DNA of 3,562 nucleotides from a virus (taxonomy: Duplodnaviria > Heunggongvirae > Uroviricota > Caudoviricetes), in IMG/VR virus record IMGVR_UViG_2563366990_000015; one strand, written 5' to 3'. The notes below the pieces were generated by a model. It saw nothing but the letters and a program-made list of their open reading frames with translations. It had not been told where the DNA came from and made no database searches. Below, piece after piece: positions 1,102 to 1,463 of the stretch. Each line of letters starts with the position of its first letter. Positions within the stretch are counted from its first letter, which is position 1. A program made the translations under genes and the position numbers.

Positions 1102-1422
1102 TCAGCGGGGTAATTTTCGGGTTGTTTCGGTTGAGTCCTGATTGCCCTCCAAATTGCAGGAGCCATCAAGAGAGAGAGCCGGGGCTATCTGTCCGGCCTC
1201 CGGCATTGTTTCATCAGTTGATAACCAGTAGGCGTACTTCTTAAATTTAGGGTGTTTTGTAACCTTAAGTAAGGCCCCCTCTGTTACTTGCTTCCCCCTC
1301 ACCTCATAGTTAGTTACTGTCCCATAAGGCAACCCCACGCAATCCGCAAACTCCTGGCGGGTCATACCTTCAGCTTCACGTATCAGGCGAAATTTTTCAC
1401 CCATGCTTGACAAAGATGCCAT
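1102..1422 (-). CDS. C: P2 C-type immunity repressor
   Basis: Translation (...GEKFRLIREAEGMTRQEFADCVGLPYGTVTNYE...KHPKFKKYAYWLSTDETMPEAGQIAPALSLDG...) matches my recollection of the ~99-aa P2 C repressor (EKIVLMRKSEYLSRQQLADLTGVPYGT...QIAPALAHFG). Stop TGA at 1104..1102. Start is uncertain: ATG 1422..1420 has GGAGG 11 nt upstream and gives a P2-like length; ATG at 1440, 1431 and 1404 are alternatives. The track's extension to 1509 runs through the repeat-rich switch region and is probably not translated. Confidence 0.8.
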   Translation of the reverse strand: MASLSSMGEKFRLIREAEGMTRQEFADCVGLPYGTVTNYEVRGKQVTEGALLKVTKHPKFKKYAYWLSTDETMPEAGQIAPALSLDGSCNLEGNQDSTETTRKLPR

Positions 1423-1436
1423 ATCGGGCATATCCT
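1407..1436 (+). promoter_or_regulatory. Candidate early promoter (Pe-like) directed toward cox
   Basis: Perfect -35 hexamer TTGACA at 1407..1412, then an 18-bp spacer and TATCCT at 1431..1436, which matches the TATAAT consensus at positions 1, 2 and 6. Orientation and position are appropriate for a rightward early promoter. The first ATCGGGCA repeat lies immediately upstream of the -10. Sequence inspection only. Confidence 0.35.
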
Positions 1437-1463
1437 CCATTGCAAACGTGCCACATCGGGCAC
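1420..1463. promoter_or_regulatory. Pair of direct repeats (CAyATCGGGCAy), candidate repressor operator half-sites
   Basis: CATATCGGGCAT at 1420..1431 and CACATCGGGCAC at 1452..1463 share a perfect 8-bp core ATCGGGCA (1423..1430 and 1455..1462), 32 bp apart, flanking the candidate -10. In P2 the C repressor binds two 8-bp direct repeats flanking the Pe -10 (recalled knowledge). The first copy overlaps the candidate C start codons. Confidence 0.4.

Follow-up and report, generated by a model that had tools for sequence, protein, structure and literature searches.

Predicted paired operators of the C repressor at the early promoter of a Xuanwuvirus-like P2-family prophage

Introduction

In phages P2, WPhi and P2 Hy dis, the early promoter Pe carries two half-sites in direct repeat that are bound by the immunity repressor C. 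The half-sites are of 8 base pairs (bp) at a spacing of 22 bp in P2, of 10 bp at 34 bp in WPhi, and of 8 bp at 26 bp in P2 Hy dis, and they flank the -10 hexamer in the first two phages and the -35 hexamer in the third (PMC1904268; PMC2995052). The two half-sites are both necessary for binding in P2 (PMC1904263). In the crystal structure, P2 C forms a symmetric dimer positioned for contact with two consecutive major grooves, and the authors of the structure found this hard to square with non-palindromic repeats; P22 c2 is cited as a structural neighbour, and in a symmetric dimer of this kind the recognition helices stand about 26 Å apart and read two arms one helical turn apart (PMC2995052). 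The subject of the present analysis is a pair of short repeats beside the C gene in a stretch of 3,562 nucleotides (nt) of a Caudoviricetes virus (IMG/VR record IMGVR_UViG_2563366990_000015), the whole of which is called the window here and is numbered from its first letter.

Immunity classes I-VII were reportedly described by Karlsson et al. in 2006. A literature search returned no paper describing operators for the class treated here, the key paper on classes I-VII lying outside that search.

The repeat pair and the early promoter

The octamer ATCGGGCA is found at 1423-1430 and again at 1455-1462, a start-to-start distance of 32 bp. The first copy lies between TTGACA (1407-1412) and TATCCT (1431-1436), which are separated by an 18-bp spacer on the plus strand and form the top sigma-70-like site of the window (10/12 matches). 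These hexamers are the predicted -35 and -10 of Pe, at a position homologous to the annotated Pe of P2 and WPhi, and transcription is predicted to start at about 1443. TTGACA-like -35 hexamers are present in 16/16 classes compared. The copies, their positions, their distance and the bracketing hexamers are all present in the sequence as a preliminary description of this DNA had them. Its perfect 8-bp repeat is correct as an exact match and falls short as the full unit, since the similarity runs to 17/20 matches in direct orientation (1411-1430 against 1443-1462) and the unit appears to be a 16-bp imperfect palindrome.

The 131-nt intergenic stretch was shuffled 5000 times with its dinucleotides preserved, and in 284 of the shuffles (5.7%) two identical copies of 8 bp or more appeared in direct orientation at a distance of 15-45 bp; hence the exact octamer alone is only marginal. 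A 17/20 repeat arose in 2/5000, and chance was rejected as the source of the pair. Elsewhere in the window ATCGGGCA with at most one mismatch showed no enrichment.

The repeats are probably the cores of two 16-bp operators of C at Pe, each of which would be occupied by one symmetric dimer. The first predicted operator, O1 (ATGCCATATCGGGCAT, 1416-1431), holds the first octamer between and within its arms ATGCC and GGCAT, fills the Pe spacer and shares its last base with the first base of the -10. The second, O2 (GTGCCACATCGGGCAC, 1448-1463), holds the second octamer, has the arms GTGCC and GGCAC, and lies 32 bp on, where it would cover about +6 to +21 of the transcript predicted from Pe. The order in the window is accordingly TTGACA, AAG, ATGCCATATCGGGCA, TATCCT and then GTGCCACATCGGGCAC 32 bp on. 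The P2 record has TTGACA, GTTTAGAT, TAGTAT and GTTTAGAT, the two copies being 22 bp apart, and WPhi (from its record and the published oligonucleotide, PMC1904263) has TTGACA, GTAACC, TATTGGTGAC, TATATT and a second TATTGGTGAC 34 bp on. C operators flanking the Pe -10 as in P2, which had been suggested before, agree well with this arrangement of O1 in the spacer and O2 downstream, with cores that are invariant and inherited with C. The 32-bp spacing falls within two to three helical turns, like that of the studied phages (22, 26 and 34 bp). It had been noted as wider than that of P2, and it is not new, since the distance is 34 bp in WPhi (PMC1904268) and 31-35 bp in many other classes; the layout of the window is that of WPhi, and the wider spacing was therefore already known.

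In the proposed mechanism, each operator would take one symmetric C dimer, with one recognition helix per arm and the arm centres 10 bp apart. One dimer would sit in the Pe spacer and the other over about +6 to +21, on the same face of the DNA and three helical turns apart. The two dimers would probably act cooperatively and bend the DNA, and RNA polymerase would be kept off Pe. With Pe off, cox and the lytic genes would be silent, and the lysogen would be immune to phages with the same operators. Since C is transcribed leftward through the region, the silencing of Pe should also relieve convergent interference on C. Cox, in turn, would act on a neighbouring array of 10-bp RRGCCA repeats, against the lysogenic promoter Pc. 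This scheme is built on the sequences and the degree to which they are conserved, on their dyad symmetry and co-inheritance with C, and on C being a homologue of P2 C; binding, stoichiometry, cooperativity, promoter activity and the effect on C expression are inferred from these.

Among prophages otherwise identical, variants of the Pe hexamers were also seen, namely CATCCT (L006) and TGTCCT (L008, L015) for the -10 and TTGATA (L013) for the -35, all with intact operator cores. These changes may be promoter-down alleles of resident prophages.

The only extra operator-like sites in the window are unpaired matches to the 14-bp core with three mismatches. They are TGCCTTATGGGACA (1318-1331, minus strand) inside C and TGTCACATCGGAAA (2011-2024, minus strand) inside the DUF4761 gene; the total of core matches is slightly above chance, but it counts both true sites. 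The left half of O1, TGCCATATC, recurs at 1594-1602 in cox, with a near copy 21 bp upstream (1573-1581). This copy was rejected as a C site, as it is common to heteroimmune phages and encodes Pro-Tyr. Heteroimmune phages that have the same cox likewise carry the shared GCCATATC at their loci, and the recurrence of both in cox is probably a coding coincidence.

Conservation and inheritance with the C gene

Related C genes were collected from 24 viral and 18 metagenome contigs. For the invariance of the cores, 14 distinct haplotypes of the same C lineage were compared, drawn from 37 relatives and the window. The 14-bp cores TGCCATATCGGGCA (1417-1430) and TGCCACATCGGGCA (1449-1462) vary in 0/28 columns, and in the segments tabulated between 1431 and 1535 the non-core columns vary at 23/91. 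Most of the substitutions, and a 1-bp indel, are located in the spacer between the sites (1440-1448) or in the stretch directly after O2 (1463-1480). Among relatives with C at 49-83% identity, the O1 and O2 of one genome match each other at a mean of 12.3/16 positions, orthologous sites match between lineages at 10.1-10.7, and the O1-O2 spacing is 31-35 bp.

Such similarity could in principle arise from constraints other than protein binding, such as translation initiation of C, elements of Pc or an old local duplication. O1 does overlap the Shine-Dalgarno-to-ATG stretch of C, Pc could be near O2, and an exact octamer repeat is by itself no rarity in the shuffles. O2, however, lies outside the coding and initiation region of C and yet has an invariant core with variable flanks, and no minus-strand sigma-70-like site overlaps it. 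Moreover, O1 and O2 change together in diverged lineages, and at this position each heteroimmune class shows a pair of its own. This explanation is thus very improbable.

The pair belongs to a segment of the genome that differs from its surroundings. Identity to Chuche and Shae_phiSM over sliding stretches of 30 nt was used to draw its borders. These heteroimmune phages are 83-100% identical to the window in int, over the final third of C, in the 10-bp array and in cox, and identity drops only in 1200-1480, to about 50-67%. This immunity cassette holds the N-terminal two-thirds of C, Pe, O1 and O2. The Cox proteins of Chuche and Shae_phiSM are 95-97% identical to that of the window, and their C proteins 44-47%. 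At the same place Chuche has TGAGAAAT twice, 24 bp apart, and Shae has ATGTGAT twice, 31 bp apart. Similarly, contig L069, which has a Cox identical to that of the window and a C of the Shae type, has a different repeat pair, ATGTGAT and ATGTAAT. Own pairs are also found in UTI89 PhiECO5, 569R5, SEN4/phiT5282H and L-413C, at 33-34 bp in the last three, and in all four they adjoin a conserved promoter of TTGACA, 17-18 bp and TAnnnT. The ATCGGGCA pair travels with C, and not with Cox or the 10-bp array. Immunity specificity would then sit in an exchangeable cassette of about 280 bp.

The C protein of the window is 33-47% identical to the aligned heteroimmune C proteins, including those of P2 and WPhi, and a phage search placed it below 50% to every other class. 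A distinct immunity specificity, as proposed earlier, is supported by these values and by the separate repeat pair of each class. UTI89 PhiECO5 (class IX) was considered as the class of the window and ruled out, being a different class.

These patterns also bear on whether the repeats might bind a protein other than C, either Cox, for the autoregulation of Pe, or a host factor. At high concentration P2 Cox extends toward Pe and represses it (PMC3936717), and the repeats are only about 10 bp from the Cox-box-like array. Against this, phages that share the array and whose Cox is 95-100% identical show unrelated repeats here. The repeats of the window are inherited together with the DNA-binding N-terminal part of C, their sequence is unlike the cox-box consensus, and class specificity would not be expected of a host-factor site. 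The repeats were rejected as Cox sites, as unrelated repeats accompany the same Cox and array, and a non-C protein in general is most unlikely.

Some relatives show further changes at this locus. L029 has a C frameshifted after the helix-turn-helix (LPYGR*), with O1 and O2 intact, and in L024 the N-terminus of C and the entire Pe/operator region are replaced by unrelated sequence. The Lelliottia-like L075 encodes at 192-491 a second C-family paralogue of 99 amino acids (aa), MQLSEKIRKIRISEGLTQ..., between cox and a window-type C cassette with the same O1/O2 pair, which makes two tandem repressor genes.

Dyad symmetry of the two sites

Each operator has perfect 5-bp inverted arms, around the centre ATATCG in O1 and ACATCG in O2, and 6/8 dyad pairs. 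The consensus is RTGCC-N6-GGCAY, a 16-bp imperfect palindrome of which ATCGGGCA is the centre and right arm. Between the C start (1402) and a point shortly after the start of cox, no 16-mers other than O1 and O2 have at least 6/8 symmetric pairs, and the outermost pair of these two is compensated, being A..T in O1 and G..C in O2. It is rather more probable than the contrary that the two sites of the window are dyad-symmetric units.

The symmetry was followed in 20 sites of ten lineages. Positions 2, 3, 5, 9 and 15 are invariant and positions 6, 7, 10 and 11 vary freely, and the pairs 2/15, 3/14, 4/13, 5/12 and 8/9 are complementary in 16-20 of the 20 sites. A T at position 4 accompanies an A at position 13 (6, 2, 0, 12; Fisher p = 0.0007), the lineages being related and the changes perhaps two independent events. 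Arms of the type TGTC..GACA occur where the helix-turn-helix reads SYD or SYN and not PYG (L050, L076), and also in the distant L052. The Serratia sites of L073, TTGCCATATAGGGCAT and GTGCCCGATGAGGCAC, share their arms and little else; here the dyad is kept, and not the octamer. Among heteroimmune classes, 8/16, including P2 and WPhi, have a 16-mer with at least 6/8 pairs in the Pe spacer, against a background of 0.43% per 16-mer (binomial 8e-11). Sites of this form agree with the symmetric dimer of the P2 C crystal (PMC2995052).

The same operator role for C could be served by recognition in the manner described for P2, which is essentially how the preliminary description saw it. Only the directly repeated ATCGGGCA, or a 10-13-bp CAYATCGGGCAYA, would then be read, by one subunit per dimer; the other subunit would make non-specific contacts and the symmetry would be incidental. 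Non-palindromic half-sites of 8-10 bp have been published for P2, P2 Hy dis and WPhi (PMC2995052; PMC1904268), and the asymmetric centre ATCG is co-oriented in both sites of the window. However, the L073 sites share mainly the arms and not the octamer, symmetric positions 4 and 13 covary, dyad 16-mers are far above background at the O1 position in the classes compared, and the left arm TGCC shows no more variation than the right one. Recognition of the direct repeat alone is therefore judged unlikely, although clearly less so than a non-C protein or a constraint other than binding.

Several points weigh against two symmetric C operators at Pe. The dyad is only 6/8, the central TCG being asymmetric and in the same orientation in both sites, and the arms of the L026/L027 lineage are unequal (TGCC..GGAA). 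The half-sites of P2 were published as non-palindromic (PMC2995052), and the symmetry score of several classes comes partly from a central CATATG that contains the C start codon. The invariance of the cores rests on few mutations because close relatives are not independent, and the conservation of O1, though not of O2, is confounded because O1 overlaps the Shine-Dalgarno-to-ATG region of C on the opposite strand. The -10 of Pe (TATCCT, 4/6) and its 18-bp spacer are suboptimal, and the start of Pe is a prediction only. For the link to autoregulation of C, a search for Pc gave no minus-strand site of at least 9/12 in 1438-1560.

The non-palindromic unit is here treated as descriptive and not as defining, because the O1 sites of P2 and WPhi also score 6/8. 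For this class, and probably for much of the P2 C family, the chances are slightly better than even that the ‘half-sites’ are complete 16-bp dimer sites, TG(C/T)C-N2-AT-N2-G(G/A)CA, arranged in tandem three turns apart.

The start of C and its autoregulation

The C gene lies on the minus strand and most likely starts at ATG 1422, which gives 106 aa (1102-1422); the alternative start at 1404 gives 100 aa (1102-1404). Minus-strand in-frame ATG codons, which read CAT on the plus strand, are found at 1402-1404, 1420-1422, 1429-1431 and 1438-1440, one of which overlaps the first ATCGGGCA by 2 nt while another abuts it. The start at 1422 is favoured by several features. In the window, as in Chuche, Shae, UTI89 and 569R5, a CAT follows the -35 by 7 nt, and at the position of the window's ATG 1404 (MGEK) Shae is without a start codon. 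Full-length C homologues in a protein search, including those with NCBI names, are mostly of 106 aa, and the exact 106-aa product is found in 124 blocks of the assembly collection. An exact look-up of the 100-aa form gave no match, since the gene is called as 106 or 112 aa. Finally, GGAGGA (1433-1438, minus strand), the likely Shine-Dalgarno sequence of C, stands 10 nt upstream of ATG 1422 and overlaps the Pe -10 on the opposite strand; the window, Chuche, Shae and L026/L027 all have CTCC after the -10.

With this start, the start codon lies inside O1 and adjoins its 8-bp core, and codons 4-5 of C contain the Pe -35. The earlier placement of the start codons at the first repeat was thus roughly right in its anatomy, 1422 being inside O1 and next to the core. 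A start codon next to an operator is not in itself autoregulation, because C binds DNA and not mRNA, and the argument from the start codons is weak. P2 C is reported to raise its own expression at low concentration and to lower it at high concentration (PMC3448106). If C of the window is autoregulated, this would be due to the position of O1 and O2 between Pc and the coding region of C, or to the easing of convergent transcription when Pe is silenced. A weak Pc candidate was seen by eye (TTGTGG 1536-1531, 17 bp, TCGAAT 1513-1508) and was dropped, its -10 not being conserved in Shae and L025. In P2 and WPhi the Pc promoter is itself weak.

The Cox-box-like array

Downstream of O2, on the plus strand, the hexamers AAGCCA (1473), AAGCCA (1483), GGGCCA (1493) and GAGCCA (1503) follow each other in steps of exactly 10 bp (1473-1508). 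The cox-box consensus of P2 is TTAAA(G/C)NC(A/C), with a spacing of 10-11 bp and overlapping Pc (PMC3936717). By eye, the four RRGCCA boxes match about 5-7 of its 8 specified positions, and four are clear in the window, against six or more boxes at the Cox sites of P2. Phages that carry a different C share the array and cox at 87-100%. The array is thus a probable Cox operator over or near Pc, and appears to belong to Cox and not to C. The choice between the repeats and the array as the site of C, which had been left to experiment, falls by comparison on the repeats, as the array travels with Cox and the ATCGGGCA pair with C.

The last of these boxes is overlapped by an imperfect palindrome, TTGAGCCATTCGAA / TTCGAACGAATCAA (1501-1522, 79% complementary), which may be part of Pc, or a site for Cox or integration host factor. 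Over 1501-1530 the window is 100% identical to Chuche.

The locus and its neighbours

The window is the switch of a Xuanwuvirus-like Escherichia coli P2-family prophage. The leftward C matches the C protein of phage P2 (PDB 2L49/2XCJ, ‘C protein’; E 6.7e-17 over 83 residues), with a weak match to HTH_3 in Pfam, and it is this homology of a small helix-turn-helix protein to P2 C that identifies the window as an int-C-cox lysis-lysogeny switch. C adjoins the operators and diverges from cox, and int, which is also leftward (1-1005; Pfam Int_N and Phage_integrase), lies downstream of C. On the plus strand, cox (1536-1823, 95 aa; Pfam Phage_Cox, E 6e-23) is the early operon's first gene, with the ribosome-binding site AAGGAG at 1521-1526, and it is followed by DUF4761, DUF4754 and small early genes. 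Rfam matched no RNA family within the window.

Among deposited phages, Xuanwuvirus P884B11 and Escherichia phage PhiR44_2 come closest, with a DNA identity of about 90%, and matches to the region at 80-95% are present in 297 of 5426 complete E. coli genomes. A scan of genome contigs with C added two distant relatives only. In the one NCBI contig examined, the prophage adjoins a pdxB that is 99% identical to E. coli pdxB, which points to E. coli as the host for that contig at least.

Inside the 3' end of int, GTGGACAC occurs twice, at 11-18 and 22-29, 11 bp apart. The pair matches the P2-type Int arm-site consensus tgTGGaCa (PMC3448106), and its position corresponds to the P' arm Int site of P2. 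The pair at 11-29 is probably an attP/attL arm.

Implications for immunity groups

If the operators are as predicted, the operator and hence the immunity group could be read from sequence for a widespread P2-family (Xuanwuvirus-like) lineage, present in about 300 of 5426 complete E. coli genomes, and it could be predicted which lysogens exclude which phages. The dyad symmetry, if it is real, would revise the standard picture of P2-type C on ‘direct repeats’ and resolve the puzzle of the symmetric dimer. It would also imply a specificity code, for example Gly as against Asp/Asn in the PYG motif of the helix-turn-helix corresponding to C:G as against T:A at arm position 3, and such a code would make immunity groups predictable from sequence. 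Natural pairs of protein-DNA covariation would in that case be offered for recognition rules. Otherwise, the operators are an expected part of a known type of switch.

Comparison with known switches

The nearest relatives of the locus are P884B11, PhiR44_2 and about 300 E. coli prophages. Their C is 91-92% identical, the first 75 of 106 residues being identical and the differences starting from residue 76, and P884B11 and PhiR44_2 have the same O1 16-mer, 14-bp O2 core and Pe, differing in the outermost bases of O2. This group differs from the window by about 10% in DNA, by an O1-O2 distance of 31 instead of 32 bp, and in the first two Cox-box-like repeats. The operators are unannotated in the records of P884B11 and PhiR44_2. 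Both phages are predicted to share the immunity of the window because of their identical first 75 residues of C, O1 and O2 core.

With P2 the window shares a homologous C, the int-C-cox layout, two units flanking the Pe -10, and Cox boxes between Pe and cox. P2 differs in its spacing of 22 bp and in 8-bp units that are described as non-palindromic, and the C proteins are 33-40% identical.

The two arms one helical turn apart recall dimeric helix-turn-helix repressors on palindromic operators, such as P22 c2, the arm centres in the window being 10 bp apart. The switch modules, however, are not homologous. Unlike operators of the P22 c2 type, which are adjacent and in tandem, the sites of the window are strictly co-oriented, have an asymmetric centre and stand three turns apart across the promoter core.

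WPhi (immunity class III) is the closest in layout. It has a P2-family C of about 100 aa beside a divergent cox, a consensus TTGACA -35 beside the C start, O1 in the -35/-10 spacer abutting the -10, and O2 about three turns downstream (34 bp, against 32 in the window). In WPhi, Pe and Pc converge, which is counted as common to the window (PMC1904263; PMC1904268). The operator itself differs, being TATTGGTGAC in WPhi and RTGCC-N6-GGCAY in the window, and the C proteins are 41% identical. Dyad symmetry is found at O1 only in WPhi and at both sites in the window, and the C start of WPhi precedes the -35, whereas that of the window is probably inside the spacer, adjoining O1. Binding and promoter starts have been mapped experimentally in WPhi, and those of the window are predicted from sequence. 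Hence the operator sequence of this class appears to be new, and the type of switch and its layout are already known, with WPhi as the closest described example.

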